Below are positions 3,585 through 51,600 of a DNA stretch of 60,104 nt, one piece after another. A model generated the notes under the pieces. It ran no database searches and had not been told where the DNA came from. It saw only the letters and a list, made by a program, of their open reading frames with translations. Source of the DNA: a virus. Lineage: Duplodnaviria > Caudoviricetes. The position numbers and the translations under genes are program-made. The DNA is taken from the IMG/VR virus record IMGVR_UViG_3300030012_001141, positions 1 to 60,104 of that record. One strand, written 5' to 3'. Each line of letters opens with the position of its first letter. The stretch's first letter is position 1.

Positions 3585-3586
3585 AA

Positions 3587-30007: not shown

Positions 30008-30008
30008 T

Positions 30009-37248: not shown

Positions 37249-37684
37249 TACTCATGGATTTTTTAATCTCTAGGATGGCCTGATCGACTTGTTTTTTATT
37301 CTTAGCCAAATATACATCATAACCTAGGTTATTATCCATAATATGCTTTAAAAAAAGCTTCCATCTCATAGGAAAATCATGATGAGATGGTAAATATCCC
37401 TTTGTCTCTATTATCCACTTAGAACCCTTACCTACAAAATCTGGTGTGTACCTTATGGGATGTTGCACTGAATTTGTTCTATCACTCATCAGTTGTTTCT
37501 TGGCAGTCATTTTGAAATACTTATTAGTAAACCTAAAGGACTCTTTAAGAACAAACTCCTTTTCTTCATAAGAGAAAGCTATCCCAGATTCACGTAACGA
37601 GTCTGAACAATACTTCTCTATAGAAGATTTAAACTTCCCTAATGATTTTTTTTTAGATTTAGTTTTGCGTTTACCTCTTTTCAT
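37241..37684 (-). CDS. Endonuclease I-like Holliday junction resolvase
   Basis: FKSSIE...YE...YTPDF...IIETKG motif of the T7 endonuclease I family. Confidence 0.75.
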   Translation of the reverse strand: MKRGKRKTKSKKKSLGKFKSSIEKYCSDSLRESGIAFSYEEKEFVLKESFRFTNKYFKMTAKKQLMSDRTNSVQHPIRYTPDFVGKGSKWIIETKGYLPSHHDFPMRWKLFLKHIMDNNLGYDVYLAKNKKQVDQAILEIKKSMSNE

Positions 37685-37722
37685 AAAGCGAAGTTACACC
37701 TCATGCTGTATTGCCTCCAAAT

Positions 37723-39525
37723 TTATTTTGATAAAATATTAGAGAAATTTATAGATGATTGCGTATCTCCTTGAAAGTCAATGTTTTCGAATAAAGGTTT
37801 TTTACCTAACCAAGATAGAAATCCTGTGTGAGAGGTATTCATTACCATTCTGTATGGATCTTCTAACGGTGTTGGGTAGCCTCCAGTCTCTACTTCACGA
37901 ACTTTACGTACGTGTAACTCACTCATTTTCCGTATAGTATGGTCTGGTGATTGAACCTTTCGATGAAGTGTAAGGAAACAATCCGATCTGTTAACAAATT
38001 TACCGCCTCCCTCTGTATCCTCAGCATACGGGGCAACTGGGAGCCCATCGTCACCTTTACGTCTTTGAGCCTCTGTGAACGCATGCATGTTCAACCACAC
38101 AGCAACTTCATTTGCTTTTGAGAACGTAAGGAACTGACTAGCAGCCTCATAGTGGTAGTCATGTACACCAATACTTGAACCAGACATATCTAAACGTAGT
38201 GAGTTATAAGGATCTACAAACACAGCGTCCAATACTTGCTGACGCATTACCTTCTCCATAAACAATATTATATCTGAGTAGCTGTATATACCGTTGTTGT
38301 TAATCAAGGTGAAGTGTTCTTGCACCCACTTGTAAGCCTGCTTACGTTGAGCGTACGTCATGTTCTCAACCTTACGATCAGCAGCAAACTGCATCAGATG
38401 CATCTTAACTGACGCTGTCCTATTCTCTGATGAGTATATCAACCACTTCCACCCATGACGTATAGTAGCATTTGCTATAAGGTATAAAGCCATCGTAGTC
38501 TTACCTACATTACTGTGGCCGTTGATGATAACAAACTCCTTCTTGTATCTAAAGTATTCATCTAGGGTAGGGTCTCCTGTATCCAACCCAATCTCTATGT
38601 TACCTTGTGAATAGTCGTCAATCCACCTGAAGTCCTCATCATCTGAAGATATAAAGGACATATCACCGTCATTGATTAGTAACTCCCTTTGCGCTGACTT
38701 CTCGCTATCTATGATGTCTTTAATTGGTAGCGATTTACCTTTTTCAATACCACTTATAATCGTCTGCTTAGCGTGATCTTCAGAATCTATATCCCTTTTC
38801 TCTATCTCTCTGAAAAGGACTCTTAACACTTCCTCTTCTTCCATGCGACCTGCAGAGATATAACCACCACACAGGATAGCTGCTTTGTTAAGTGTAGCCC
38901 ACTTCTCCCCGTCCTTAGCATTACGTATCATACGTGCAGCTAAGTTCAGCTTCATGTAATCCGTATAGGAGTATGCATCATTAGTGGGGACCTGAGCTTC
39001 AGCATGCTCAGTAGTAAAATGACCAAATCTTTTATAGTCATCTTTAATAATTATGTCAGGATCGTAAGACTCAAAACAGGCCCTAGATTCGTTTATTCCA
39101 GTCTCATCGACTTCTAAACCATGTTGACGGCTTAAATACGCTGTAAGCGCCCTAAAATGGTCTCTATGGCGCTCTGGATTGGTGATACGAACAAGCGCTT
39201 TAATGCCATCGCCACTCGGCGACACCCAACAAGCATAAATATAGTCATCTGTAGCCAGCGCCGTCTTCGTTGCCTCAACATCAACGTGATCAAAATCCAG
39301 AACAATGTATCCCGAATGTTCGAATAACGCCTCATCAGCTCTAGACGAAAACTCCCCGCTGAAACATACAACAGGGAGCTCAAGCTTCTTCTCTTTATTT
39401 CCTTCTCTGATCTCATGTATCAGATCCTTGCTCTTCCCCCGTTGGATACGAGAGAGCGCTGTTGCCAGCTGTATGTGATGTGGTGCTTTGGTTGACTTTA
39501 CGTCCTTGAATATAGTTACTTTCAT
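37723..39525 (-). CDS. Primase-helicase (VirE-N/BT4734-like N-terminus plus DnaB-like helicase)
   Basis: LPVVCFSG, HSGYIVLDFD, SPSGDGIKAL, SRACFESYD; Walker A GHSNVGKT, VFVDPYN, HVRKVR; start at MKVTIF. Confidence 0.8.
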   Translation of the reverse strand: MKVTIFKDVKSTKAPHHIQLATALSRIQRGKSKDLIHEIREGNKEKKLELPVVCFSGEFSSRADEALFEHSGYIVLDFDHVDVEATKTALATDDYIYACWVSPSGDGIKALVRITNPERHRDHFRALTAYLSRQHGLEVDETGINESRACFESYDPDIIIKDDYKRFGHFTTEHAEAQVPTNDAYSYTDYMKLNLAARMIRNAKDGEKWATLNKAAILCGGYISAGRMEEEEVLRVLFREIEKRDIDSEDHAKQTIISGIEKGKSLPIKDIIDSEKSAQRELLINDGDMSFISSDDEDFRWIDDYSQGNIEIGLDTGDPTLDEYFRYKKEFVIINGHSNVGKTTMALYLIANATIRHGWKWLIYSSENRTASVKMHLMQFAADRKVENMTYAQRKQAYKWVQEHFTLINNNGIYSYSDIILFMEKVMRQQVLDAVFVDPYNSLRLDMSGSSIGVHDYHYEAASQFLTFSKANEVAVWLNMHAFTEAQRRKGDDGLPVAPYAEDTEGGGKFVNRSDCFLTLHRKVQSPDHTIRKMSELHVRKVREVETGGYPTPLEDPYRMVMNTSHTGFLSWLGKKPLFENIDFQGDTQSSINFSNILSK

Positions 39526-39778
39526 TATCTTTTGCAATCATTAAAAGGATTAGATACCCAGCTAAATCCATAACCGTATCCTCTGTTTCATCATATATAC
39601 CTTTATTCTCAATCCTCTTAAGTTTATCATCTATCCTGATCTTGATAGCTTCAACAGAAGAGAGACGCGAAAATACATTCGCAGGAATAAGAGCTGAATC
39701 GCCGTAAGAATTATTCTTTTCTAGTAATAGCGTTTCAATCTGCTTACACTTTTGTTTTATTTTGTCTTTGGTGCTCAT
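39413..39778 (-). CDS. Nucleotide-modification-associated domain protein (DUF1599/Nmad1-like)
   Basis: LLEKNNSYGDSA...IRIDDKLKRI...EDTVMDLAGYLIL. Confidence 0.75.
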   Translation of the reverse strand: MSTKDKIKQKCKQIETLLLEKNNSYGDSALIPANVFSRLSSVEAIKIRIDDKLKRIENKGIYDETEDTVMDLAGYLILLMIAKDNESNYIQGRKVNQSTTSHTAGNSALSYPTGEEQGSDT

Positions 39779-40040
39779 CTAAAGTTAGGTTTGAGTAGTT
39801 TAGAAAAATAACATCACTCACCTCTCTTATAATAACCTGTTTGTTTTTAGTCTTACTATTCTTACCGTAAGCCTCATTTGTCAAGCGATACATGGTCCTT
39901 TTATCATGCTCCATTATCTCTGCAGGATTATTATATATAGAGACTATCCACGATGAACGCTCAGAAATACTTTTGTTTTTCTTAAAAGCAAACCGAGCGT
40001 TCATATAGTAGATACGGGCCTTGTTAGAACGGCATGTCAT
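39744..40040 (-). CDS. Hypothetical protein
   Basis: Fills operon gap; start uncertain. Confidence 0.55.
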   Translation of the reverse strand: MTCRSNKARIYYMNARFAFKKNKSISERSSWIVSIYNNPAEIMEHDKRTMYRLTNEAYGKNSKTKNKQVIIREVSDVIFLNYSNLTLDEHQRQNKTKV

Positions 40041-40329
40041 CCGTTACAACCTCAGTAGCTGCAGCCTTTGCAGCACGTTTTTCCCTAGCAGCTTCGCTGT
40101 TTGGATCAAACACTGAACAGCATGGCTTTCCAGTCTTAGACATGAACAACTTAAGGTATACGTTACCGCCTTGACCTTCTGCATTACGCTTAGTAGCGTA
40201 CTTGTCGATCATCTCTTTTAGCTCTGTGTCCTTAAGACGAACACTCCAGCTAGACAACTCTCCCTCGTACATACGAGGCTCATCCGTGTACCCTACGAGT
40301 ACAGAATCATACTTTTTATCATCAGTCAT
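40024..40329 (-). CDS. Probable ssDNA-binding protein
   Basis: 101 aa with acidic-aromatic C-terminal tail DDMPF; beside recombination genes. Confidence 0.6.
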   Translation of the reverse strand: MTDDKKYDSVLVGYTDEPRMYEGELSSWSVRLKDTELKEMIDKYATKRNAEGQGGNVYLKLFMSKTGKPCCSVFDPNSEAAREKRAAKAAATEVVTDDMPF

Positions 40330-40435
40330 GATATAAAAATTTAAAGGTTAAATAAAAAACATATAATATACAGAGTGATATAAAGTCCATAGACCTGCGT
40401 AATAAAAAACCACGTTACCTATAAACTCTATCAAC

Positions 40436-41203
40436 TTAGACAATAAATGAAGCATAGCAATTAAGTTCTGGCGCTTCTTTATCTAAGTGTTTATGTATAT
40501 TCTCCAGGGCTTGATGAAATTTCATCTCCCCCTTGAACAGGGTTTCCTCCGAGCATTTTACTTCTGCTGGGTAGTATGGGTATGCTTTCTCTTGGACTAC
40601 CCAATAGTAGTCTTTGATTCCGAATACCTTTGTGTAGATATATGCTTGGATGTCATAACAGAAACTGTTTACATCGTATCTGAACTTCTCTACACTTCTT
40701 GAACTTTTGCTATCAGTGATGTAACCATCACCCAAACAATCTAAAAATCCTTTAAGGGGTACACCGTCAATATCTTCATTGAATTCAACCTGATACCTAC
40801 CTTTTAATCTTTTCTGCAGTAAACCGCAGTTAGCCAGCCTGTCGATCATGTCATTCGCCTTCCTCCAGTCCTCCGAGCTAACGAGCGTCTTATCCGCGTT
40901 CTCCGTAGCCTGAGCAGCCTCCGCTTTCCACTCCTTGTATTTTTTAGTATTCCTAGGGTACTTCCCACCGATCTTAGCCACGATCTCATCATCGTTAAGC
41001 ACGTAGTAACTTTCATAAGCTTTATCTCTTTCAAACAATAACATATCGTATAGAGTGCCAAACCTTAAGGCTTCGCTATCTTTCTTCAGTTCACCCTTCA
41101 TGTACATCTCCCAGAGACGCATGTCTCCGAGAGCGTACTTAATTGAAGAGTATGAAAGATGTGGTTTACCAGTGGCTTTCTCTAGTCTTTCTCTTAATGT
41201 CAT
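40436..41203 (-). CDS. PD-(D/E)XK exonuclease (RecE/exonuclease VIII-like)
   Basis: LSYSSIK, LRFGTLYD, LKGFLD, ITDSKS, YDIQAYIY motifs. Confidence 0.75.
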   Translation of the reverse strand: MTLRERLEKATGKPHLSYSSIKYALGDMRLWEMYMKGELKKDSEALRFGTLYDMLLFERDKAYESYYVLNDDEIVAKIGGKYPRNTKKYKEWKAEAAQATENADKTLVSSEDWRKANDMIDRLANCGLLQKRLKGRYQVEFNEDIDGVPLKGFLDCLGDGYITDSKSSRSVEKFRYDVNSFCYDIQAYIYTKVFGIKDYYWVVQEKAYPYYPAEVKCSEETLFKGEMKFHQALENIHKHLDKEAPELNCYASFIV

Positions 41204-41718
41204 CGCACGAACTTCTTAAGACCTGTCACTTGCTTTTCAGTAAGCTGATCTTTGTACTTAGTCATTAGTTGATCGAAAGCCTTACGCTTATCAGTAGCAG
41301 ATTTGAGGTAAGCTACAGACTTTTCCATGATGTTTTCTACTTTGTCAGGTGCTTCTGCAGACTGTTTAGCTATAGCATCCTGAACCTCGTTAGCTGAAGC
41401 TATAGATGTATCGATACCAATACCCATCATAGCGAGAGCTCTACCAATAGCTGATGTTTCACAGTTTTCTACATAGCTAGTTTTGTTGATGTGACTACCT
41501 GAACGCTCTTCATGTGCATGACCAGTTGCTACTACACGCTGATTCGTGTCAGCTATAATAGCCTTACAGACACACATTTCTGAATCTAACGCTGTAAATT
41601 CTGTTGAAATCGTCCAGTTTTTGTACTCATCTTCTTGGCGGAAAAATTTAATACGCTCGTTTACTTCGACGTATTGTTTGCCACGTATGTTCGTGGTCTT
41701 GAATTTGTAATTAGACAT
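41200..41718 (-). CDS. ssDNA-annealing protein (Sak/Rad52-like)
   Basis: IRGKQYVEVNERI...ATGHAHE...ENCETSAIGRALA; adjacent to exonuclease. Confidence 0.65.
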   Translation of the reverse strand: MSNYKFKTTNIRGKQYVEVNERIKFFRQEDEYKNWTISTEFTALDSEMCVCKAIIADTNQRVVATGHAHEERSGSHINKTSYVENCETSAIGRALAMMGIGIDTSIASANEVQDAIAKQSAEAPDKVENIMEKSVAYLKSATDKRKAFDQLMTKYKDQLTEKQVTGLKKFVR

Positions 41719-41741
41719 ATATTAAATTAAATTAGGATTGA

Positions 41742-41773
41742 CAAATATAAGCAAGTGTTTGTTAAAAACCAAA
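41742..41773 (-). promoter_or_regulatory. Full Bacteroidota promoter for the recombination/replication operon
   Basis: Minus strand TTTG (41773-41770), 20-nt spacer, TATATTTG (41749-41742). Confidence 0.75.
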
Positions 41774-41941
41774 CTTTCTTGCATCTTCATATAATTTATG
41801 CATAGCATTTTCAAACTGCAATGGTGACTGATGTACGTCCCTGCAGATCAGCATAAACCTATCCATCAAGTGGATAGCATCTAAGTGATGAGGTTTTAGT
41901 TCAAGGGTTTCCCCTAGCATGTGTTCTTTTGTTTTACTCAT
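41762..41941 (-). CDS. Small early protein (59 aa, not in track)
   Basis: MSKTKEHMLGE...ARKFGF, translated by hand. Confidence 0.55.
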   Translation of the reverse strand: MSKTKEHMLGETLELKPHHLDAIHLMDRFMLICRDVHQSPLQFENAMHKLYEDARKFGF

Positions 41942-41958
41942 AATGTATTGATTGTTAA

Positions 41959-42114
41959 TTAGTTATTTAATATTATATTAAGTTTTAGTTTACGTACCCA
42001 AACCTCTGTGATCCAGTCCATAGCTTCATGATCTTGATCATGATAGAACAGCATGTATGCTTCAGCCAGTTCTTCTAGACTGCAATCTCTGAAAGGGTTC
42101 TGTTTATACGTCAT
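41959..42114 (-). CDS. Small early protein (51 aa, not in track)
   Basis: MTYKQNPFRDCSLEELAEAYM..., translated by hand. Confidence 0.5.
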   Translation of the reverse strand: MTYKQNPFRDCSLEELAEAYMLFYHDQDHEAMDWITEVWVRKLKLNIILNN

Positions 42115-42187
42115 CTTTGTTGCATTGATAGGTTAAATAGATAGCACCCACTACATAGAACAGTGCTACTGGTATTAGTATATTCAT
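42104..42187 (-). CDS. Small membrane peptide (27 aa, not in track)
   Basis: MNILIPVALFYVVGAIYLTYQCNKDDV. Confidence 0.45.
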   Translation of the reverse strand: MNILIPVALFYVVGAIYLTYQCNKDDV

Positions 42188-42189
42188 TT

Positions 42190-42417
42190 TTATTCATCAT
42201 AAAAGGGTTCTTCAAAATCTTCATTGGCTAACTCTTGCATACAGCTATAAAAGTTTTTGTCCTCCAGTAAGAAAGACATATCGTGCTTGTTACTACCACA
42301 CCCATAGTATATATGGTCTATGTCTAAGCTAAGTCCCTCAGGGTACTCGACAGCATAGTACACTAGCGTAGCTTCTACACCGAAGTCTAGTTCAAATCCT
42401 ACTTCTCGTTTACTCAT
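42190..42417 (-). CDS. Small acidic early protein
   Basis: 75 aa, tiles with neighbours. Confidence 0.6.
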   Translation of the reverse strand: MSKREVGFELDFGVEATLVYYAVEYPEGLSLDIDHIYYGCGSNKHDMSFLLEDKNFYSCMQELANEDFEEPFYDE

Positions 42418-42583
42418 CTTTACTTTCTTTTAGTTTATCTAATTGTTCTTTGTATTGCTGGGCTATAAGCTCCCAAGCCATAGCCTTCTTAAGTAGCTCT
42501 GTTTTAGTGTGTGCTTTAAGCACGATCTTTCTATCTTCTTTTGACATAAGATCTAGTGGGTTGAATTCTTTTTCGTTACTCAT
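42410..42583 (-). CDS. Small early protein (57 aa, not in track)
   Basis: MSNEKEFNPLDLMSKEDRK..., overlaps both neighbours by 8 nt. Confidence 0.55.
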   Translation of the reverse strand: MSNEKEFNPLDLMSKEDRKIVLKAHTKTELLKKAMAWELIAQQYKEQLDKLKESKDE

Positions 42584-42764
42584 ATTCACCTGCTTTCATA
42601 CCCCATAACATATCACGTGGCATCTCATCGAATACCACCATGCTATCTTTTTCATTGGGTGCATTTTGTACTAGCGTCTGTGCTTCTTCTCTTGTTAGTG
42701 AGTGGAATAGGATATCCTTCTTGAAGTTATCTCTATACACTCGGTATACTGCGTAATTTTTCAT
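42576..42764 (-). CDS. Small early protein
   Basis: 62 aa, LTREEAQ motif. Confidence 0.6.
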   Translation of the reverse strand: MKNYAVYRVYRDNFKKDILFHSLTREEAQTLVQNAPNEKDSMVVFDEMPRDMLWGMKAGEYE

Positions 42765-42925
42765 TTTGTGTGTGATTTAATTGCGTCAATAAGCATTTCT
42801 CTTGCGTGTGTCGGATCGGATAGCACCGCATGTACTAACCATGCGAACTCATTGTCTAGCGTTTCCTTATCACCTATCATGTACTCAATGTACTCGTCTG
42901 CTTTTGTTTGTGTTTCGTAACTCAT
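42761..42925 (-). CDS. Small early protein
   Basis: Start reassigned to MSYETQ. Confidence 0.55.
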   Translation of the reverse strand: MSYETQTKADEYIEYMIGDKETLDNEFAWLVHAVLSDPTHAREMLIDAIKSHTK

Positions 42926-42932
42926 TTTGTTT

Positions 42933-43082
42933 TTATTTAATTGGTTCATCCATATCCATTCTTTCTTTATCATCTTTGTCTGACTTAGTGTCCACTAGGT
43001 GGACATTAGTAATTAGTTCAGCTAGTTCGTGCATACTGAATGATGCGAAGCCTGTCTGTGTTTTTGGTTTACGCTTGCTCAT
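42933..43082 (-). CDS. Small early protein (49 aa, not in track) containing palindrome copy 1
   Basis: MSKRKPKTQTGFASFSMHELAELITNVHLVDTK... Confidence 0.5.
   Translation of the reverse strand: MSKRKPKTQTGFASFSMHELAELITNVHLVDTKSDKDDKERMDMDEPIK
42989..43005. repeat. 17-bp palindrome, copy 1
   Basis: TGTCCAC-TAG-GTGGACA. Confidence 0.95.
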
Positions 43083-43233
43083 GTCTTTTGTGGTTTAATG
43101 TTCTACCTCTATCGAGAATGTTTTCTCCTTCAGCCATACCTAGTTGGTAGTACTGCCTCCATGCATCGCATGAAAGGAAGTTGTTGAACCAATCAAGGTA
43201 CATAGCTTCGGCTTGTTCGTCAGTGTAATTCAT
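43069..43233 (-). CDS. Small early protein (54 aa, not in track)
   Basis: MNYTDEQAEAMYLDWFNNFLS... Confidence 0.6.
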   Translation of the reverse strand: MNYTDEQAEAMYLDWFNNFLSCDAWRQYYQLGMAEGENILDRGRTLNHKRHEQA

Positions 43234-43234
43234 A

Positions 43235-43438
43235 TCATTGTACTATGTCTTGGTAGAAGATGTGCTTACCATCTTCACTGATGTAACCTGCATCGATCAG
43301 GGCTGATGCAGTTCGCCCGTAGCTACCTTGTAGCGTCCATGCCATGCCATTCTTGATTAGCTCAGAGAATAGTTCTAGCACTCCTGTGTCGTCTAAAAGA
43401 CCACACTCGAAGTCAATTATTTTGTCTGTTAAATTCAT
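43235..43438 (-). CDS. Small conserved phage early protein
   Basis: AWTLQGSYGRTASALI motif. Confidence 0.65.
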   Translation of the reverse strand: MNLTDKIIDFECGLLDDTGVLELFSELIKNGMAWTLQGSYGRTASALIDAGYISEDGKHIFYQDIVQ

Positions 43439-43440
43439 GA

Positions 43441-43539
43441 TTAAAATAGTTCTTTTATTAGTTGTACTTTTTCTGCGTCTGTTAATTCATCGCTATCGAG
43501 TATGTTGATTAGATAGCACTCAAATTCTTCTGTATTCAT
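43441..43539 (-). CDS. Small acidic peptide (32 aa, not in track)
   Basis: MNTEEFECYLINILDSDELTDAEKVQLIKELF; ATGA overlap. Confidence 0.45.
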   Translation of the reverse strand: MNTEEFECYLINILDSDELTDAEKVQLIKELF

Positions 43540-43751
43540 GCGTATACTATTTCTGTTTCGTTAACTCTTTCTATTGCTTTGGCTAGATTCTCTAGTGCCT
43601 CTACTCTTTCTCGCAGTATATCCTCATCGTCTATACCGCAGTCGTAGTACCCATTGATATCCCAATGGCAGTCATCGTGGTTGTATGCATCTTCAGATGT
43701 TAGTTCGTCTAACTTATCGTTTACTCTTGTGTATCTTTTTAGTAAATCCAT
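43536..43751 (-). CDS. Small acidic early protein
   Basis: 71 aa, D/E-rich. Confidence 0.6.
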   Translation of the reverse strand: MDLLKRYTRVNDKLDELTSEDAYNHDDCHWDINGYYDCGIDDEDILRERVEALENLAKAIERVNETEIVYA

Positions 43752-43761
43752 GATGTATGTT

Positions 43762-44043
43762 TTATTGGTTTATTTCAATTAGTTTTCCATTTAATTCTTC
43801 GTATTGGAAGTCTGTAGGGCATTCCCACTCAGTCCAATAATATTCCCCTAGATTATAGCTTTCAGCTAGTATGTAATCGTCAGATAACTCGTTGTCCTTG
43901 TCTACATTCCATGAGCGGAGAAGAGCGATAAGGTCTTTCTCGTACTTGATGTGCATAAATCCATCGCCTACTACATAGCCATCATTCATGCCTTCACCTG
44001 TTATATCACATTTTCTTGCGTACTGTTCTCGTGTATTACTCAT
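43762..44043 (-). CDS. Small early protein
   Basis: ARKCDITGEGMNDGY...YYWTEWE. Confidence 0.65.
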   Translation of the reverse strand: MSNTREQYARKCDITGEGMNDGYVVGDGFMHIKYEKDLIALLRSWNVDKDNELSDDYILAESYNLGEYYWTEWECPTDFQYEELNGKLIEINQ

Positions 44044-44242
44044 CTTTTTTTATTGGTTTGTTGTGAACTTAAAATAAAACGGATTAAGATTATGTTCCTT
44101 TCTTAATTTCATTTTAGCTTCTTCTAAATTTTTTGCCATTATTTTTAACTCAAATTCTCTTTCCTTTTGATAGAGCTTGTAACTTGATGGCTTAAATATT
44201 TGGTGGTCGTGCTTTACGATATACTCTCGTGTATTACTCATC
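44027..44242. repeat. 18-bp direct repeat pair at 44027-44044 and 44225-44242
   Basis: TCTCGTGTATTACTCATC twice; encodes the identical start MSNTRE of two adjacent genes. Confidence 0.9.
44050..44241 (-). CDS. Small early protein
   Basis: Start reassigned to MSNTREY; AT-rich. Confidence 0.55.
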   Translation of the reverse strand: MSNTREYIVKHDHQIFKPSSYKLYQKEREFELKIMAKNLEEAKMKLRKEHNLNPFYFKFTTNQ

Positions 44243-44512
44243 GTCTTGTCCATAAGGTGCGTCATTAAATGATTTAAACTCTTTGTGGTATAGTTCCTTT
44301 GCTTTTACGGATAGCATTTCTGTGTCGCATTGCTCAAGCTCTGCTTCGCCTAGCGTATCCCATATCTCGTGGTACAAGTCATTTTCAAACGGAAATGGTT
44401 CTGTATCACCTAGCGTTATTCTTTCAACGCTTGATGTTGTTAGTTCGTCAGGTAAAGCTACCTCGATTGTTGTGGTGTATGTACGCACCACTTCTATTTC
44501 AAATAGTTTCAT
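44234..44512 (-). CDS. Small acidic early protein
   Basis: 92 aa, E-rich. Confidence 0.6.
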   Translation of the reverse strand: MKLFEIEVVRTYTTTIEVALPDELTTSSVERITLGDTEPFPFENDLYHEIWDTLGEAELEQCDTEMLSVKAKELYHKEFKSFNDAPYGQDDE

Positions 44513-44781
44513 GATTCTAAGTATTCTTCTTTTAACCTTTTTAGATTATGGTAGTATTCGGTCTGTGCCTCGTCGTATCTCTCTCGCAATTCTGCTCGGT
44601 GTTCTGAATCCATACCTTCGTAGCTATTAGAATGCATTTCACACTCTGCTTGTAACCAGTCGTAGTTCGATGCCAGGTCGCTGAATCGGTAGCGTAGGTT
44701 AAGTAGCTGCTCTGCGTAGACTTCTGGCTTTGATACAATTGCTTGCGCAAGTTTTTCGATAAGTTCTTTTTTAATAGTCAT
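44509..44781 (-). CDS. Small early protein
   Basis: 90 aa, ATGA overlap. Confidence 0.6.
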   Translation of the reverse strand: MTIKKELIEKLAQAIVSKPEVYAEQLLNLRYRFSDLASNYDWLQAECEMHSNSYEGMDSEHRAELRERYDEAQTEYYHNLKRLKEEYLES

Positions 44782-44782
44782 G

Positions 44783-45271
44783 TTAATCTTGATTTAATTT
44801 ATATAAATAACTCGTTGTATGTCTTTGATATTCTTTGCCCGTTTCTATATTCATAAAAACTTGTATCACACTTGTATATTTTCTAGTATTTGAAGTTATC
44901 CTGTCTATCATGTGTGTAGGTAAACCTGCTTTCTTTAAAGCCGACTTAGTTATCCTACCATGTATTTTAGTGTTATGTTTTATGCGTTTCTTTTTCTTAG
45001 TTAAGCTATATAATTCAAATTCTCTAAACCTATCCATTTCAAATGGTCTCCCATTTGCCTCGTCTAGACGCATCCAACTTCTTTTTAATTTTCTACATTC
45101 TTTACTAAATTCATCAGGTGTGAATTCTCTGTAAGTATCATGAAATATCCTATGATATTTGAATACATATAAGTTCTTTCCGTTCATCGTACCCATTCTA
45201 GCTATATCAAAAGGCCTCAAGTCGAAAGGGTGTGTTGAAATAAAATTTTCTGTATCTGCCTGTAAATTCAT
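44783..45271 (-). CDS. Basic early protein
   Basis: 162 aa, K/R-rich, AT-rich gene. Confidence 0.6.
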   Translation of the reverse strand: MNLQADTENFISTHPFDLRPFDIARMGTMNGKNLYVFKYHRIFHDTYREFTPDEFSKECRKLKRSWMRLDEANGRPFEMDRFREFELYSLTKKKKRIKHNTKIHGRITKSALKKAGLPTHMIDRITSNTRKYTSVIQVFMNIETGKEYQRHTTSYLYKLNQD

Positions 45272-45286
45272 CTCCGATCTGATTTG

Positions 45287-45303
45287 TGTCCACTAGGTGG
45301 ACA
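45287..45303. repeat. 17-bp palindrome, copy 2
   Basis: TGTCCAC-TAG-GTGGACA, intergenic. Confidence 0.95.
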
Positions 45304-45305
45304 GT

Positions 45306-45500
45306 TTACATTTCTGTTAGTATTTCCATTGCCTTGTCCATCGCATAGGCACGTTGTTGCGTCATAGTACCTGACGTTTGTGGTGTAGGTAGCATGATGT
45401 GTGTTGGGTAAGGTTTGGTGTCCAACCTATAAAACTCGTCTTTCCTTTGGATAGCGTTAGCCATTTGGCGTTGGTGGTGTAGTTTCTCCTGTAAAGTCAT
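45306..45500 (-). CDS. Small early protein
   Basis: Start reassigned to MTLQEKL. Confidence 0.55.
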   Translation of the reverse strand: MTLQEKLHHQRQMANAIQRKDEFYRLDTKPYPTHIMLPTPQTSGTMTQQRAYAMDKAMEILTEM

Positions 45501-45502
45501 GA

Positions 45503-45724
45503 TTAGTATGATTTGATTATAGTGCTGATGCCGAATTGTTGAGCAACATATCTGATGTGCTTCTGTGTAGTGCGTGTTGCTTCTGTAACGTGCGACCAAT
45601 TATGTTGCTTCATAATCCCACCACGTTTGAACGTAGCAACGTGCGTGCCGTAGCTATACACTTTGAACTCTCCATTGTCCACTGGGTGGACAGAAAGGTT
45701 TTTCTTGTATTTATCTAACTTCAT
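45503..45724 (-). CDS. Small early protein containing palindrome copy 3
   Basis: VYSYGTHVA...TTQKHIRYVA motif. Confidence 0.65.
   Translation of the reverse strand: MKLDKYKKNLSVHPVDNGEFKVYSYGTHVATFKRGGIMKQHNWSHVTEATRTTQKHIRYVAQQFGISTIIKSY
45676..45692. repeat. 17-bp palindrome, copy 3 (spacer variant)
   Basis: TGTCCAC-TGG-GTGGACA. Confidence 0.9.
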
Positions 45725-45727
45725 GTT

Positions 45728-45895
45728 TTATTGGTTTAAATCGTCATACTGTTCAGCGAGGCACTCTACCTCTTCATCGTGTATGGCTACATTCAGGTAC
45801 TCCGATACGTCGATGTAAAGTTTACCGTCTAGCTCTTCGCTAGGCGTTTCGTAGCGTACTTCAAGTACGAATGATGCTTTTTCTAATTGTGTCAT
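45728..45895 (-). CDS. Small acidic early protein (55 aa, not in track)
   Basis: MTQLEKASFVLEVRYE...YDDLNQ; ATGA overlap. Confidence 0.55.
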   Translation of the reverse strand: MTQLEKASFVLEVRYETPSEELDGKLYIDVSEYLNVAIHDEEVECLAEQYDDLNQ

Positions 45896-46290
45896 AGTAA
45901 TATATCTTTTTGGTTTTTACAGTCGTAGATTGCGATTTCGCCACGTTTTTTCGCTATGTCCGTAGCTACGTCAAGGTTATACAGATGTTGCACAAGGTCG
46001 AAGTATATCTGCCCTTCGTGTATCCATGTACCCACTCCCATACCTGCCTTGTACAAGTTGCTCGTGTATTCGGGTAGTAGCATTTCGTACTTATCCCATA
46101 GCTTTTTGAATGCTTTGAAGTGCGCTCTTGTATCAGGGTATGCACTGCCGTCAACCTCTGCATACATAGTGGTTGGCTCAACTACACCGCCTACGATGTA
46201 ACCTTCGGTTGGGTTGATTGTGCCATCTGCAAGGCGTGTATATCCGCCATCAAGTAGCGTGTCGATGTACGCTTTTTTCTCTTGTGTCAT
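45892..46290 (-). CDS. Early protein of unknown function
   Basis: VGTWIHEGQIYFDL...AKKRGEIAIYD motif. Confidence 0.65.
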   Translation of the reverse strand: MTQEKKAYIDTLLDGGYTRLADGTINPTEGYIVGGVVEPTTMYAEVDGSAYPDTRAHFKAFKKLWDKYEMLLPEYTSNLYKAGMGVGTWIHEGQIYFDLVQHLYNLDVATDIAKKRGEIAIYDCKNQKDILL

Positions 46291-46295
46291 CTTAA

Positions 46296-46385
46296 TTATA
46301 TTATGTCCACTAGGTGGACAATGTTAAACTCTGATTGCATATCTGCTAATGCTTCGTGCATAGCTTGTAATTCTTGCTCGTTCAT
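46296..46385 (-). CDS. Small peptide (29 aa, not in track) containing palindrome copy 4
   Basis: MNEQELQAMHEALADMQSEFNIVHLVDII; TAATG coupling to upstream gene. Confidence 0.45.
   Translation of the reverse strand: MNEQELQAMHEALADMQSEFNIVHLVDII
46304..46320. repeat. 17-bp palindrome, copy 4
   Basis: TGTCCAC-TAG-GTGGACA. Confidence 0.95.
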
Positions 46386-46687
46386 TACATTATGTATTTA
46401 ATAGTTGTTAAAATCATAGCACTTATTCCAATGCAAGTAGACACAACTCCTATAATTGCAAATGCTTTTATTAGTCGGTCTGAATATGCCTTGTTTCGTT
46501 TAATACTCTTAGCTTTTAGTTTAGCTTTAAGTTGCTTAATTGCACGTTCACGCTCCTCACGTTCACGCTCTACTTTTCTACCTTGTAATATCAATGCCCT
46601 TACTTCCTCATAGGTAGTCTTATATTTTGGAGGTTCGTAACCACCTGCGTAGTAACCGCTTACTTTCTTTTCTTCTTTTTCATACAT
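46385..46687 (-). CDS. Early protein with C-terminal membrane anchor
   Basis: Charged helix then AFAIIGVVSTCIGISAMIL. Confidence 0.6.
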   Translation of the reverse strand: MYEKEEKKVSGYYAGGYEPPKYKTTYEEVRALILQGRKVEREREERERAIKQLKAKLKAKSIKRNKAYSDRLIKAFAIIGVVSTCIGISAMILTTIKYIM

Positions 46688-46717
46688 GATTTCTAGTTAT
46701 TAGATAGCGCAAAGTAA

Positions 46718-46734
46718 TGTCCACTAGGTGGACA
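46718..46734. repeat. 17-bp palindrome, copy 5
   Basis: TGTCCAC-TAG-GTGGACA, intergenic. Confidence 0.95.
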
Positions 46735-46761
46735 ATACCAAGTCTATTTTGTTAATCAATG

Positions 46762-47286
46762 TTAAAAAGCTACTTCTTCAACTTCAGTTAGTTCAATGAT
46801 AGCCATTTCGGTACGCTCAAGCTCATTGAGTAAAGTCTTAAGATTCTCTATTATCTCCGCCTTATCGCCGTTCATTGATACGTTTAGATTCTCGTCTAGT
46901 CGTACACTACCTCCGCCAATTTCTTTAGAGGTTGTGAACGTGTACCACGTTTTGGGTTTGTCCTCAGCGTCTGGCTTCATGAAAGCTAATAACCCTTTAA
47001 TTGAGTACGTTGCCGTTTCCACACTGTCAATGTATCGTTGAACGTCCTCAGCTTTTACTTCTGCTGACTGTCTGAGATATCCGAAAAAGGTCTTTTTATA
47101 TCCGTATGCTTCGACTAATTGGTCTCGCTTCATGCGCTTATCTTTTGGTGTGCATTTCCAAATTTCGTAACCTTCGGCGCATAGCTTACCGATTTCCAGT
47201 TGTACTTTGAAGGCCTGTAGACTTCCTTTCATTGCCTTAGCATTTAGCTTTAGGACTTTGTTGATATTGGCTTTTAAGTTATCCAT
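46762..47286 (-). CDS. Early protein, possibly DNA-binding
   Basis: 174 aa helical N-terminus (QLEIGKL...YGYKKTFFGYLRQ); function is a guess. Confidence 0.6.
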   Translation of the reverse strand: MDNLKANINKVLKLNAKAMKGSLQAFKVQLEIGKLCAEGYEIWKCTPKDKRMKRDQLVEAYGYKKTFFGYLRQSAEVKAEDVQRYIDSVETATYSIKGLLAFMKPDAEDKPKTWYTFTTSKEIGGGSVRLDENLNVSMNGDKAEIIENLKTLLNELERTEMAIIELTEVEEVAF

Positions 47287-47387
47287 AACTGTTTTATTTT
47301 AATATTGTGCGCATTGTTGCGCTTGTTTACTTGAGTTAACGTCCTAGTTTTTTAACGTCAGCTATGACCTGCTGACCCGATATGTAT

Positions 47388-47404
47388 CGTCCACTAGGTG
47401 GACG
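47388..47404. repeat. 17-bp palindrome, copy 6 (symmetric outer-pair change)
   Basis: CGTCCAC-TAG-GTGGACG. Confidence 0.9.
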
Positions 47405-47650
47405 TTAGGCGTGCATCATTCGCGCCTCTTTTCGTGCTCTTCGTGCCTCTCGTCGTGCCTCACGTTGGCATGTTGCTTTTGCCTCGTACCTGTCGCGCAG
47501 TGTCGACTCAGCGATACGGTGCGAGTACCAATTTATCAGTGCATCAACTTTGTGCTGACTGTCTGACGCTTTGCGCTTTGCATTGCGCCTTACCTTCATG
47601 GGTTGCGCTCTGTGTCGCCTGTCGTGTAGTATCGTGTTCATAATTTTCAT
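47405..47650 (-). CDS. First early gene, Arg-rich protein
   Basis: 81 aa directly after a promoter-like motif. Confidence 0.5.
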   Translation of the reverse strand: MKIMNTILHDRRHRAQPMKVRRNAKRKASDSQHKVDALINWYSHRIAESTLRDRYEAKATCQREARREARRARKEARMMHA

Positions 47651-47654
47651 ACCC

Positions 47655-47687
47655 CAAAGATGCGGGTATTGATTTCACAAAACCAAA
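47655..47687 (-). promoter_or_regulatory. Probable early promoter
   Basis: Minus strand TTTG (47687-47684), 21-nt spacer, CATCTTTG (one mismatch to TAnnTTTG), 4 nt before ATG 47650. Confidence 0.55.
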
Positions 47688-47783
47688 TTAAAAATGTTAA
47701 CAAGTGTTAAAATTTAAATCCCATTTTTCCGTAGATAGGAACGCACACGCGAGATGTAAAGTAAAGGTTTAAGTAAATGAACA

Positions 47784-48397
47784 TAACTTATTGAATACCA
47801 ACCACTTAGCATAAATTTAACATTCGTTAACAGTGTAACTTATTGATTATCAGTTAGTTAGCACTTCTCCAAAAAGTAATACCTAACTACCAGCGAAGCC
47901 ATTGAAGCTCTTAAAACGGCTTAAAATGGCTCGGTGTTAAAATATGTTAAATGTTTTGTATTTTGCCTTTTGTTATGTATAGCGAATTGTTAGACATGAC
48001 TAATAAAATAGTTTAGGTAAGACTAAATAATACCCACTCGTTTTTGAATGATAATATATATTATGTTAAGTGAGTAGTTGGTTTGTCCCTTTCTCCTTTG
48101 TTACTCATTATCAAAGCAAAGCAATGCTTTATTTATTTAATTGCTTTAGTATACATACCTTAAGTAATTGAATACTAGTAACTTACAGTAAAAAGCTAGA
48201 TTTATACAGCAAAAAAACAAAAAAAACAAGGGGACGGCGTTAAAAAAAGTTAATTTTATTTTACAAAAAAATCTGTTTTTATAATATATAATCCCCACAC
48301 TCCTTATTTCTGACGTTTTTTCGTGGGTTCCCCGACTACTACGATCAAATCGGCTCCCCGACTACTACATCTTAACTCCTTGATTACTAAACAGTTA
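47784..48397. repeat. Four 25-bp quasi-palindromes TAAST-NN-TTGAWTAYYAR-NN-ASTTA
   Basis: Copies at 47784-47808, 47836-47860, 48161-48185, 48373-48397. Confidence 0.8.
48329..48368 (+). repeat. 14-bp direct repeat pair
   Basis: TCCCCGACTACTAC at 48329-48342 and 48355-48368. Confidence 0.85.
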
Positions 48398-48620
48398 CGC
48401 AAAAGTCTTAAAGTAAAGCTTTAGCACTTGACTTTTAAAAAAAAAAGTGGTAACTTAGCCAGCGAATGTAGCGGATTACGCGATTAACTTCCGAAATGAG
48501 GGTATTTGTAAGCGTAAACAGTCTATCTGATACAAGACTAGCTATATTTAGTGGAATACGCCCTAACTATACCCATGTATGTTTACTGTTTGGGGTGATC
48601 TATTAAAAGATTCCTTTTAT

Positions 48621-48628
48621 TACCTTTG
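48621..48628 (+). promoter_or_regulatory. -7 promoter element, near-leaderless
   Basis: TACCTTTG then 5 nt then ATG 48634. Confidence 0.65.
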
Positions 48629-48633
48629 CACCA

Positions 48634-51600
48634 ATGCGCTTAAGAAGAAGAAGATACCACACTGGGGGTGGAATACCACCACATTCACACCCACATGAAG
48701 TTCTTGATAGTTTAGTGGACGATTCTTCAAAAGCATTTGTATCTGAAGCCACGCAGCCTGCAGGTAATATACCACCAAGAGATCCCTTTAGCAAACCTAT
48801 AAATATAATACCCCGTCCAGATACATTATCTGAAGCATCAGACGATGCCTTTGAACCAATAAGTTGGTTAGAGCTTTTTTCAGACCCTGTACGAGCATTC
48901 AGATTTTACAATCAGAATCCACAATTTAGTGCTGCAGCTAATATTCCTGGCTATGAAGGTCGTTTTGAACCATTCAGAAGACCTACGAAAGCAGAATTTG
49001 ATGCAACAGAGAGTAGAGCTATAGATTTTGCAGGTCAGGTTTTTAATCCAGCAACTTATGCTCAGACAGCAGTAGAATTAGATAAGGATTTAACTGAACT
49101 AGATAGAGAAATCATTGCAGCTTTTGAAGATGGTCGTCTTAGCGGATCTGATTTAGATCGTGTGGGAGGTCAGTTAACAGAAGCAGGACTTAAAACTTTA
49201 TTTTTAGTTGGTGGTGCTTCAATGCTTAGAGGTTCAGGTGTTGGTTCTTTTAAAGTTCCAGCATCAGGAACACAGCAACAAACAGGAGCTTTACAGCAAT
49301 TAGCAGGAGAAAGTCAATTATTATTACCATCTGCAAAGTCTGCAGCACCCACTGCAGTGACGGAAACAACCCCAACACTACAGCAGTTAGCAAAGAAGTA
49401 CCAAGCAGAACGTGGTATAAGGACTAAGAAAGGTGCGTATGTATCTGAAGAAGCACCATACTTAGAGAGTAATATAGCTAAAGGTGGTCAATCAATAGAT
49501 ACTGGAGGTTTTGATCCAGTTCCTGGAGTAGTACAAAATGTAGAAAACTTAGGTGTGTATCAATTCCCTGGTTTGATAAAAGGTAGCAAATTAGAGAAGT
49601 CTGTTAAAGCAAAAGATGGGACTATATCAAAATCTGTAGTAGAAGATTATGCTAACGATCTACCAAAGAATTCGACTAGAGAGAAGAATGCTATACTTAA
49701 TGCGCTAGTAGAGTTAGATCAAGAATTCCCAGGTAAGACAATAGACTATGAAGCTTTAAGATCTTACGTGTCTTTAAATATAGAACCAGCAACAGTAATA
49801 AAAACCAAAGATCAAGCTAATTATGGGTTAGCAAAACTTGATTATGACATCAATGTTGATTTACGAAATACACCAAAGACTCTTATATATCAAGATGAAT
49901 CTCTTGGTATTGCGCCACCTCATCCAGGTATGAAAGATGGAGCAAGTTACTGGATAAGAAGCTTTGTTAATCCAGATGAATCTGAAATATACTATGTAAC
50001 AGAGTGGCAAACTGATTTACAAAAATTAAAAACTCCAGATGATCTTATTAAAGCTCCTGTTAATGTACCAACAACTTTTTCAAATAGAAGTTTTAATTTT
50101 TTAATAGATGATTGGGAATCAGTTGCATCCAATGGAATAGAAGGATTTATGTATCAAATGGATGCACAAAAGTATGCAGCAGAACGTGGTGTTTTAAAAA
50201 ATACTTTTGCAAATATGGGTATAAGTCGTGTCCCTGGTTTAAAACAAATTGAAGAGATAACACTTGACCTCCCACTTATTGTTTTTGATGACCAGCCTTT
50301 AATATCTCAGTTACATGACATAGGCACTCAAATTGAAAGTCTTGATCAAAAGATATATAATGCTGAATTTAATTTAGGTGCAAAGGATCCATCTATAGTA
50401 GAACTTCGAGAACAAAGAGATACTTACGAGCTTGCTTTTGACGAGGGTATGTTTGAACTTAAAAAAGTTAAAGATGAATTTGATAAGAATTTACCTAACA
50501 GGGATGCTCTTATAAAAGAAGAAGTAAATCTCAGAAAATCTCAAATTGAATCATTAAAACTTAAATGGATTAATGAGTCTATGTTAGATGCAGCTAGAAA
50601 CGGTCAAACAATATTAAGAATACCAACTCCTGAAACATCTAGAAGAATACAAGGGCATGGCAATCCTAATAGGTTTAAAGCTGTACATAGAAAATACAAA
50701 GACTTCCCAAAGTATTACAAAAAAGAGTTTGGTGTTGAAGTTAGAGAAGTCACTGACGATAGAGATAACACATGGTGGGAGGTAGATATCCCAGAAAAAT
50801 ACTTTAATCAAAATATGATGTACATGGAGGGGGAAGTAAAAACCCCATCAGAGTTTAAGACATACAAAAAAGGTGGTATCTTGCAGGCTATGGCTAAAAA
50901 GAATAGATCAGATAAAAATAAGTTTGTAAGCAAGAAAGTAAAAGTTCTACGCAAAGAGGGTAAAAGTCTTAAACAGGCAGTTGCTATAGCTCTTAGTATG
51001 TGGGAAAGAAAAAACAAAAAGAAGTTTGGTGCTGGTGGCGCTATATCTGACTTCGGTGTACAGACAACATTCTCAACTGACTTTGTAGAAGACTCTACTG
51101 ATGTTGCTGAACTAGAAGATCCAAGTGAGGAAGTACTAGCTACATCTGATCCAGAATTAGAAAACCCAGAGCTCACTGAACAGGAGATAAAGGATTTAAA
51201 GAAAAAGAAAGCTTTACAATCTGCTGGTAAAGGAGCTGCAGTTGGTGCTAGTATAGGTAGTGCTATTCCAGTTGTTGGTACTGCAGTTGGGGCCGTAGTT
51301 GGTGGTTTAATTGGTGGGTTGGGTAGCTTATTAAGCAATAAAGGAGTAGAAGATCCAGAACTTATCATGGCTAAAAACGGAGTGAAGGTGCATAAGAAAA
51401 AAAGAACATTTGATAAAGGAGGACTTCTAGAAGCGTTAAAACAAAGAAAAGAAAAAATAGACGCGGCTAAAGAGTACTATAAAGAAGAGAGTGAAAACCC
51501 GACAATGTATTTAGATGAAGAGGGTAAAATAATGATGCCAGATGTTAGTTATGAAACTGGAGAACCAGTATATCGTGAAGTAGAGTTAACTCCACAACAA

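Follow-up and report, generated by a model that had tools for sequence, protein, structure and literature searches.

What reads six nearly identical palindromes in the early region of a probable marine phage, and with which genes do they belong? The window, that is, the whole stretch of DNA analyzed here, is the entire IMG/VR virus record IMGVR_UViG_3300030012_001141 (60,104 bases; completeness estimate, 98%), and the palindromes lie at positions 42989 to 47404 of it. The initial annotation of this DNA had proposed that they are operators for a dimer of a DnaA-domain-IV/coiled-coil protein encoded at 35893-36525, with hairpins in single-stranded DNA or mRNA and recombination points as alternatives. 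We found that the six palindromes belong to a portable early-operon module with two genes, designated ORF1 and ORF2, and not to the DnaA-like protein. Besides, the element fits a folded single strand with a 6- to 7-bp stem and a 3- to 5-nucleotide (nt) loop rather than a duplex operator for a dimer. Our best guess, to which we give a probability of roughly 40%, is that the element is an RNA hairpin in the early transcript and is read by a protein that the module itself encodes.

Six palindromes in the early operon

The pattern GTCCAC-NNN-GTGGAC occurs six times in the window (42990, 45288, 45677, 46305, 46719, and 47389) and nowhere else, at a chance expectation of 0.01 per window and with none of 100 shuffles reaching six, and a search for the 17-mer with up to three mismatches returned the same six places only. 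The palindromes listed by the initial annotation were all found, and its by-eye impression that there are none elsewhere was confirmed by this genome-wide motif scan of the 60,104-bp record. They are among 28 perfect hairpins of the window whose stem reaches 7 bp or more and whose loop has 3 to 5 nt. Every gene from 35893 to 47650 lies on the minus strand, and the element, written in the direction in which these genes are transcribed, is TGTCCAC-CTA-GTGGACA; on the plus strand, its center is TAG at 42990, 45288, 46305, 46719, and 47389 and TGG at 45677.

Five copies are intergenic or lie at the extreme end of a tiny ORF, and one is intragenic (45676). In the order of transcription, and all on the minus strand, hairpin 1 (47388-47404; CGTCCAC-CTA-GTGGACG) directly follows the stop codon of ORF1 and stands 101 nt before the ATG of ORF2. 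Its outer pair is C..G versus T..A at the other sites of the window, and the homologous site in one relative (L206) has T..A and a TGA loop. Hairpin 2 (46718-46734; TGTCCAC-CTA-GTGGACA) lies 27 nt past the stop codon of ORF2, a position that is kept in relatives, and 30 nt before the ATG at 46687. Hairpin 3 (46304-46320) is at the 3' end of the 29-amino-acid (aa) ORF3, 13 nt before the ATG at 46290; hairpin 4 (45676-45692; loop CCA) covers codons 11 to 16 of the ORF at 45503-45724 (phrog_4264); hairpin 5 (45287-45303) lies 2 nt past the stop codon of the ORF at 45306-45500 and 15 nt before the ATG at 45271; and hairpin 6 (42989-43005) lies 15 nt before the ATG at 42973, at the 5' edge of a 60-nt indel. 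The range of 13 to 30 nt upstream of start codons that had been given for three copies is right, but the number of such copies is four (hairpins 2, 3, 5, and 6).

The predicted minimum-energy fold is the hairpin in all six contexts, at -9.2 to -13.3 kcal/mol as RNA, and the hairpin is also the predicted fold of the template strand as DNA (-5.9 to -7.2 kcal/mol). If the frame of the upstream ORF is continued, four of the six hairpins yield V-H-L/P-V-D, but this did not go beyond chance and was dropped.

Linkage of the element to ORF1 and ORF2

ORF1 (47405-47650, minus strand), the first gene of the leftward early operon, encodes 81 residues, of which 23 are K or R and 9 are D or E (net charge, about +14), with an Arg-rich C terminus. 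Its homologues (78 to 81 aa; K+R, 23 to 25; D+E, 9 to 10) lie directly upstream of hairpin 1 in every module locus reaching that far, and ORF1 fell into no Pfam or PHROG family. ORF2 (46762-47286, minus strand) encodes the signature protein of the module, of 174 aa, for which only 35 representatives were found at an E value of ≤0.001 among 1.84 billion proteins; Pfam gave nothing at an E value of ≤0.01 and only scattered chance hits at an E value of ≤10, and PHROGs gave none.

The search with ORF2 yielded 30 loci (2 from IMG/VR and 28 from metagenomes), which we call module loci. Relatives carry the element: at least one copy stands beside ORF2 in 30 of 30 loci, although L218 and L234 have a one-mismatch variant only, that of L234 being found via the other strand. 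A pattern scan of IMG/VR for the GTACAC form of the stem returned two contigs, both of which encode ORF2, and in four partial records (18 to 28 kb) the hairpins lie within about 2 kb around ORF2 and nowhere else. Hairpin 1 comes first among the copies in all 12 loci whose upstream sequence extends for at least 3.1 kb; no copy precedes ORF1 in these loci or in the window, and ORF1 would thus be expressed by other means before the hairpins act.

For comparison, we assembled 40 IMG/VR loci (553,526 bases) sharing the primase/helicase of the window at 64 to 83% identity. The replication block (35.9 to 41.7 kb in the window) is conserved among them, and the small-gene region (41.7 to 47.65 kb) is a mosaic in which each gene recurs in 0 to 10 of the 40. 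These loci contained no hairpin site, no ORF1, and no ORF2. Likewise, no element site was found in the relative genomes G002, G003, and G005, which are without ORF1 too, and no ORF2 in these three or in G004.

The DnaA-like protein is distributed differently. The product of 35893-36525 carries a Bac_DnaA_C helix-turn-helix (Pfam E value, 3.5e-9), and members of its family are 45 to 89% identical with a conserved recognition stretch, KNHATILHH. A peptide-pattern search returned no close relatives of it, whereas an alignment-based search reached two near-complete genomes, G002 (72% identity; completeness estimate, 97%) and G003 (47% identity; completeness estimate, 96%). Neither genome has the GTCCAC palindrome, hits with up to two mismatches being no commoner than with a reversed control pattern, and neither has a palindromic repeat family, a cluster of DnaA boxes, or a site of the wider element. 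Thus, the motif does not follow the DnaA-IV protein, and the proposal of operators for a dimer of this protein is not supported. Nor do motif and protein occur together across these relatives, in which the recognition stretch is conserved and the palindrome is absent. This removes a tempting but wrong link of the palindromes to DnaA.

ORF3 (46296-46385, minus strand; 29 aa, ...LADMQSEFN...) ends at or in hairpin 3, and most module loci repeat its coding sequence immediately before a hairpin, with flanks of the types '...gatatgcaa...gagtttaac' and '...gatatgcaagatgaatttt'. The leader between hairpin 1 and ORF2 holds a second stem-loop, GTCAGC-aggtcata-GCTGAC (47357-47376, minus strand), with a GGTCA-loop counterpart after hairpin 1 in L215, L216, L222, and L225. 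More conserved stem-loops are seen in this leader of 100 to 150 nt, in the window as well as in L216, L222, L225, and L233, and some relatives have GTACAC-AATAC-GTGTAC, a stem of the family type with a 5-nt loop, 17 to 20 nt before the ATG of ORF2. This leader may serve for autoregulation.

Structure-preserving evolution of the element

The anatomy of the element was derived from 96 distinct contexts, taken from the window and the 30 module loci. The stems are GTCCAC/GTGGAC in 36 contexts, GTACAC/GTGTAC in 28, GTCCGC/GCGGAC in 12, and GTACGC/GCGTAC in 6, with a one-mismatch stem in the other 14. The loops are most often TTGA (29), CTA (26), TAA (7), and TTAA (6), others being rarer, and loops of 3, 4, and 5 nt stand together in single contigs (L216, L222, L223, and L225). 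In the alignment of the element, stem pair 3 is CG in 44 rows and AU in 25, and stem pair 5 is AU in 41, GC in 18, GU in 5, and something else in 6. Two of the seven stem pairs covary (score, 0.239 versus 0.097 for shuffled data; none of 500 shuffles reached the score), 91.2% of the paired cells are complementary versus 82.5% in shuffles, and pairing falls to 14 to 54% when the 3' partner is slid by one to three columns. Independent double changes are few because the sites are related by descent. The stem also changes within one genome, for example, from GTACGC at site 1 to GTACAC at the later sites of L219 to L224. Stem positions 1, 2, 4, and 6, base +1, and the loop are conserved across phages whose neighboring proteins are only 37 to 50% identical. 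In L223 (1456-1840), GTCCAC-TAA and GTACAC-TTGA hairpins are mixed in one contig; either the reader accepts stems of both types or this phage has arisen by recent recombination.

The flanks of the stem are conserved and not complementary to each other. Position -3 is A in 86 of the 96 contexts, -1 is C or T in 94, and +1 is A in 95, and the consensus is TAAY before the stem and AAAA after it, with +1 to +4 mostly A. The nearest stop triplet ends 1 to 5 nt upstream of the stem in 81 of 96 contexts, and the first ATG comes 13 to 18 nt downstream of it in 50 (mode, 16), so a typical junction consists of a stop codon, 1 to 5 nt, the hairpin, AAAA, about 10 nt, and an ATG. The near-constant distance to the ATG may reflect genome economy only, i.e., a hairpin followed by a minimal unstructured A-rich leader. 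Throughout the module loci, the copies are co-oriented with the genes and keep the orientation of their loops, as had been noticed for the spacer in the window, and they are confined to the first 2 to 4.5 kb of the early operon; in several relatives, two copies stand 112 nt apart around a tiny ORF.

Hairpin 4, the intragenic copy, is kept in L210 to L213 and L215, where a compensatory stem change alters the encoded peptide (VHPVD, VRQAD, and VHLVD); in L212, for instance, the compensatory change turns VHPVD into VRQAD. A hairpin-less homologue of this ORF in L157 has a shorter NLVHDGK in its place. We count this copy in favor of a structured element, since it is kept by compensatory changes that alter the peptide.

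We infer from the compensatory changes, the loop length that varies within a genome, the oriented loops, and the asymmetric flanks that the element works as a folded single strand. The stem-triloop hairpins that the initial annotation had listed only as an alternative accord with stems that change by compensation, loops that differ in length, and flanks that are specific to the strand. An operator for a symmetric dimer should have a fixed spacing and no required orientation, and the element has neither property. Nor are the hairpins ordinary terminators, because they lack a U-tract: the downstream flank is AAAA, and an intrinsic-terminator flag on the minus strand was raised only at 46718, with a weak tail.

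A proposed hairpin of the early transcript read by a module protein

The placement between stop and start codons, the absence of a copy before ORF1, the linkage with ORF1, and the lack of a recognizable polymerase together point to a module-encoded reader acting on the early transcript. The module, in the order conserved noncoding leader, ORF1, hairpin 1, structured leader, ORF2, hairpin 2, and then hairpins between small genes, is carried by marine podovirus-like phages of Bacteroidota. We suppose that the operon is transcribed by host RNA polymerase from a start upstream of ORF1 and that the hairpins form in the early transcript, where a module protein, with the arginine-rich ORF1 product as the first candidate and the ORF2 product as the second, would read them. 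The composition of ORF1 resembles that of arginine-rich motifs known as binders of RNA hairpins. The reader might set the expression of each downstream cistron by continued transcription (as lambda N at boxB), by gating of translation, or by fixing of mRNA ends. As a side effect, the repeated identical sequences of 15 to 25 nt would serve as junctions for the gain and loss of gene cassettes.

The arginine-rich motif of lambda N binds boxB, and the layout of the module is, by analogy only, like that of lambda N/nut: the early operon opens with the gene of a small, very basic protein and has elements of the size of an RNA hairpin farther downstream. The lambda nut regions (boxA, boxB, and boxC) are described as nucleating a complex that includes N (PMC2724277). 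In contrast to the two nut sites of lambda, there are at least six copies here, at nearly every early junction, and the host belongs to Bacteroidota. Besides, no boxA-like partner accompanies the hairpin, whose conserved flanks are TAAY and AAAA only, and an intrinsic-terminator scan found no terminator to be overcome, although Rho-dependent sites are not open to such a scan.

Several findings weigh against this reading. Among the sequencing runs listed for 42500-48700, none contained the region as RNA, and two metatranscriptome runs from a shared sample had next to none of its sequence words. The early region upstream of 41.9 kb has no minus-strand intrinsic terminator for antitermination to overcome except the one flagged at hairpin 2. 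A seventh stem pair (-1/+1) can form on the template strand in 94 of 96 contexts (53 Watson-Crick and 41 G.T) versus 53 of 96 on the sense strand, a strand bias that hints at a template-strand DNA hairpin, and the anatomy of the element matches that of the hairpin promoters of phages N4 and LUZ7. Among the one-mismatch intermediates, about 7 would wobble on the sense strand and 9 on the antisense strand, i.e., there is no preference for sense G.U, and we discarded these intermediates as uninformative for assigning the strand. The likeness of ORF1 to arginine-rich RNA binders is one of composition only, and the two sequence types of ORF1 do not sort with the stem type. The structure model of ORF2 (pLDDT, 82) has six helices in its N-terminal domain, followed by a small alpha/beta domain at the C terminus, and the weak leads from fold and feature comparisons of ORF2 are to helical domains that bind DNA: VIA-align aligned the N-terminal domain best with the DNA-binding region of Spo0J (Z, 6.5; root mean square deviation [rmsd], 3.1; 82 residues), which is within the noise range of the tool, and among the named Atlas clusters DUF3102 came closest (0.91, no more than a lead). 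Foldseek gave no match to the PDB at an E value of ≤0.001. Furthermore, ORF1, ORF2, and the hairpins are physically adjacent, and their co-occurrence may be simple linkage.

Another contig also tells against this reading. G001 (L149/L150), an unrelated IMG/VR contig, has 13 copies of the same core and no ORF2 homologue in its 36 kb, which are an estimated 38% of the genome. It has 47% G+C, Shine-Dalgarno sequences, and portal, capsid, and terminase families different from those of the window. Its copies, perfect 15-nt GTCCACA-C-TGTGGAC palindromes at 28740 to 35213, each precede a small gene in a 6.5-kb run of small rightward genes after a divergent noncoding region; an ATG follows the core after 15 to 17 nt in 7 of the 13, and direct repeats (GTGCAAACGTGTGAAT) lie between the first two copies. 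Searches by tblastn, with an ORF2 profile, and at the genome level detected no protein shared between these 36 kb and the window, and no small basic ORF precedes the first hairpins of G001. The stem sequence may coincide by chance, because G001 came from a search of 2.9 million contigs for precisely this stem.

On balance, we suggest tentatively, and as somewhat less than an even bet, that marine Bacteroidota phages have an undescribed, horizontally portable system of early expression, in which an Arg-rich protein of about 80 aa and/or a protein of 174 aa that belongs to no known family reads a 15- to 17-nt hairpin at each early cistron boundary and even within the 5' end of a gene. If so, read-through, translation, or message ends would be controlled cistron by cistron in hosts without Shine-Dalgarno-based initiation. 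None of six sequence forms of the hairpin was found in print in our literature searches, and a search for conserved intergenic stem-loops in the early genes of Flavobacteria-type phages found none. The element has clear rules and is accompanied by two signature genes, and genomes that have the same downstream genes exist in nature both with it and without it; it is therefore directly testable. If a module protein does read the hairpin, the two would be a new pair of protein and hairpin that could be employed as an orthogonal regulatory part, and would account for the plugging of early gene cassettes into these phages.

Possible hairpin promoters of the N4 type

The rival that survives best is that the element is a promoter like those of N4: a template-strand hairpin, extruded from DNA that is supercoiled or unwound, would be recognized by an RNA polymerase or by a factor that recruits one, transcription would start a few nucleotides downstream, and each early gene would have its own transcript with a short leader. 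N4 early promoters are described as inverted repeats around a heptamer centered at -11, with conservation from -17 to +1 (PMC4496689), and the nine early promoters reported for LUZ7 combine a stem of 4 bp or more with a 3-nt loop and initiate 13 to 14 nt from the hairpin center, its middle promoters having a stem of at least 6 bp and a loop of 3 to 4 nt (PMC9163698). The element shares with these promoters, as far as those sources describe them, a short GC-rich stem (5 to 7 bp), a loop of 3 to 4 nt, several co-oriented early copies, and conserved bases after the stem. Its own stem of 6 to 7 bp and loop of 3 to 5 nt, the four conserved nucleotides after the stem with variable sequence beyond, the confinement of co-oriented copies to the beginning of the early operon, the seventh pair favoring the template strand, and the predicted DNA fold all suit such a promoter. 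There is also a parallel among crAss-like phages, in that the virion polymerase of phi14:2 is described as preferring single-stranded templates and no motif of an early promoter turned up in that phage (10.1101/2020.03.07.982082), and the phage of the window has a crAss muzzle domain beside its large virion proteins.

However, we recognized no RNA polymerase in the genome by Pfam or PHROG hits, by the D[FY]DxD motif (absent from the five largest ORFs), or by sequence search of the PDB. The proteins of 1815, 1988, and 1247 aa gave no match above chance to a solved structure, and the fold of the large virion proteins is unassigned. As polymerase candidates, the 1247-aa ORF was rejected with Atlas scores of ≤0.82 and chance-level PDB hits, and the 1815- and 1988-aa proteins were set aside after the PDB search gave nothing useful. 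Moreover, the relatives with 64 to 83% identical primase/helicase have no hairpin, so the reader would have to be encoded by the module, whose proteins have at most 174 aa. The first gene, ORF1, has no hairpin before it, in several relatives two copies are only 112 nt apart around a tiny ORF, and one conserved copy lies 33 nt inside a gene. Unlike N4, this phage has no recognized phage RNA polymerase, and it has close relatives without the element; N4 has a purine loop, and the form here is Y-N-(N)-A. We therefore regard hairpin promoters as unlikely, though still deserving attention. In a bolder variant of the early-expression system suggested above, the template-strand hairpins would be start signals for an unrecognized polymerase activity, i.e., N4-type promoters beyond Schitoviridae.

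Possible passive RNA hairpins or duplex operators

A second rival keeps the RNA hairpin of our favored reading and dispenses with the dedicated reader: the copies would be passive intercistronic hairpins, acted on by host enzymes only, that protect 3' ends or serve as processing sites. Between the early genes of T7, message ends are defined by RNase III sites, which are long, imperfect duplexes, about 20 bp in size and varied in sequence. The hairpins are similar in being stem-loops between the early cistrons of one long transcript, but differ in their stems of 6 to 7 bp and nearly fixed sequence. Their position right after stop codons with an unstructured A-rich leader next, their stability as RNA, and the missing U-tract accord with such a passive role. 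A purely structural element should drift, though, whereas stem positions 1, 2, 4, and 6, base +1, and the loop are conserved. Besides, the element is strictly absent from close relatives with the same downstream genes, which argues for a specific reader traveling with it. We hold a passive role to be rather improbable.

Duplex operators bound by a dimer of a DNA-binding module protein, possibly ORF2 with a ParB/KorB-like helix-turn-helix that coats or silences the early region, seem still more doubtful. The palindrome has arms of 6 to 7 bp that change together between lineages, as in the coevolution of operator and repressor, and the Spo0J alignment and the DUF3102 lead of ORF2 would be in keeping with this role. 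The design of 7+3+7 also recurs in the 17-bp repeat of Cluster O mycobacteriophages (TGTTCGGNNNCCGAACA), which is described as having invariant arms, a variable center, and no known function, with many copies at gene junctions or near the 5' ends of genes (PMC4351075). As described there, however, the Cluster O sites are spread over the genome and have, according to the authors, no meaningful orientation, whereas the copies here are strictly oriented and confined to the early operon, with asymmetric flanks, a variable loop length, and compensatory stem changes. Arms spaced by 3, 4, and 5 bp inside single contigs, loops and flanks that are asymmetric and keep their orientation, and both arms changing together at individual sites within one genome are hard to reconcile with a dimer operator, and the fold match of ORF2 is at the noise level, with Foldseek and Pfam empty.

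Gene flux and recombination

The initial annotation had also considered recombination points for the shuffling of early genes. In part this agrees with what we observed. A 60-nt segment consisting of hairpin 6 and 43 nt (42946-43005, minus strand) is absent from L158 and from one metagenome variant contig; in L158 the flanks are nearly identical to those of the window, and the extra 60 nt begin exactly with the hairpin, while the variant joint (42945 to 43006) occurs in the marine metagenome run X5 in one contig at a depth of 96.9. L158 and variants in the population part from the sequence of the window exactly at the ATG at 46290 (gene 45892-46290) and lack hairpin 3, and the gene content between hairpins differs among the module loci. 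The other indel joints of the early region, however, are not at hairpins.

That the elements are primarily recombination junctions, i.e., short repeats or targets of structure-specific enzymes by which early cassettes are shuffled, like the PeSLs of T4-type phages or integron attC, would explain the exact 5' edge of the indel at hairpin 6, the switch at 46290 with loss of the hairpin, the differing cassettes between hairpins, and the mosaic small-gene region. PeSLs are described as composite elements of a sigma-70-type promoter and a terminator-like stem-loop that are associated with indels in hyperplastic regions (PMC4122927), and they resemble the element, as far as these sources go, in being repeated stem-loops between small early genes of hypervariable regions with indels and gene swapping (PMC4122927; PMC2839356). 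The differences are that the hairpins have neither conserved promoter hexamers beside them nor a U-tract, that their stem sequence is far more conserved, and that they are tied to two signature genes; promoter-like hits in the early region are even fewer than in shuffles (30 versus 38.5). Recombination does not need the conservation of loop, flanks, orientation, and start codon distance, no recombinase or nuclease was recognized in the module by Pfam or PHROG, the other joints lie away from hairpins, and shuffling is an expected by-product of any dispersed repeat. As the primary role, recombination is thus very improbable.

Weakest of all is the reading of the six sites as operators or pairs of DnaA boxes for the 35893-36525 protein or host DnaA, which is hardly credible: its Bac_DnaA_C domain, the fit of the TGTCCAC arm to 7 of the 9 positions of consensus DnaA boxes, and the TGTCCACA arms of the unrelated G001 speak for it, but the homologues of 72 and 47% identity keep the recognition residues in genomes without palindrome, repeat family, or box cluster, the element goes with ORF1 and ORF2 instead (one of the 30 module loci was examined for the DnaA-IV protein), the GTACAC and GTCCGC stems stray further from a DnaA box, and the ninth position of the box is C or T and not A. 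The DnaA-box consensus is of the TTWTNCACA type, and the resemblance of the arms to DnaA 9-mers that had been pointed out does not extend to it, since its three matches in the window are at none of the six sites, where the arm is TGTCCAC followed by C or T.

Early junctions without a hairpin have features of their own. Those at 43770, 44060, and 45730 in the window share AAACCAATAAAACATG (stop, 4 nt, start), of which L158 has five repeats at 3103 to 5933, and this may be a second kind of recombination-prone junction. In the place of hairpin 3, L158 (2385-2430) carries what resembles the 3' half of a tRNA (T-arm GGGGTTCGAATCCCC plus acceptor), together with an inverted repeat that has 18-bp arms.

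The phage and the start of its early operon

The window has a G+C content of 36.8%. The gene of the terminase large subunit is cut between the ends of the record (1-633 and 58522-60102), which implies that the window is a complete or near-complete genome opened within a gene. No deposited phage showed nucleotide similarity to 42700-48700. The portal shares about 30% identity with its counterparts in Flavobacterium, Cellulophaga, Tenacibaculum, and Maribacter phages (87 records, none reaching 60% identity), and a BT4734-type primase fused to a DnaB-like helicase is encoded (Pfam). Judged from its sequence, this is a marine Bacteroidota phage without a close deposited relative.

Between the leftward early operon and the rightward gene at 48634-52377 lies a noncoding region of 983 bp (47651-48633) that has no copy of the hairpin. 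It contains direct repeats (GTAGTAGTCGGGGA, at about 48330 to 48370), long runs of T and A, a near-palindrome (TTAACAcTTGTTAACA) immediately upstream of ORF1, and recurring inverted repeats of the TAACT..AGTTAC type that are present in L221 too. Rfam gave no match at an E value of ≤1 over 41500-49000, and no tRNA was found in the region. A 44-nt block (47910-47953, minus strand) is identical to L221:2697-2740 despite module proteins that are only about 34 to 51% identical, and its 30 leading nucleotides recur exactly in eight module loci; the 40 loci that have no hairpin do not contain them. This block may be the promoter or a control site of the operon.

The virion-region proteins (3721-6198, 20309-26275, and 26278-27288) include a type-IX secretion C-terminal sorting domain, a dockerin-like repeat, and a crAss muzzle C-terminal domain, the last adjoining the large virion proteins; these domains hint at a distant crAss-like tail organization in a 60-kb phage. 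Finally, a GroES-like co-chaperonin gene is located at 56853-57440 (phrog_13932), with the Cpn10 domain in the C-terminal half of its product.

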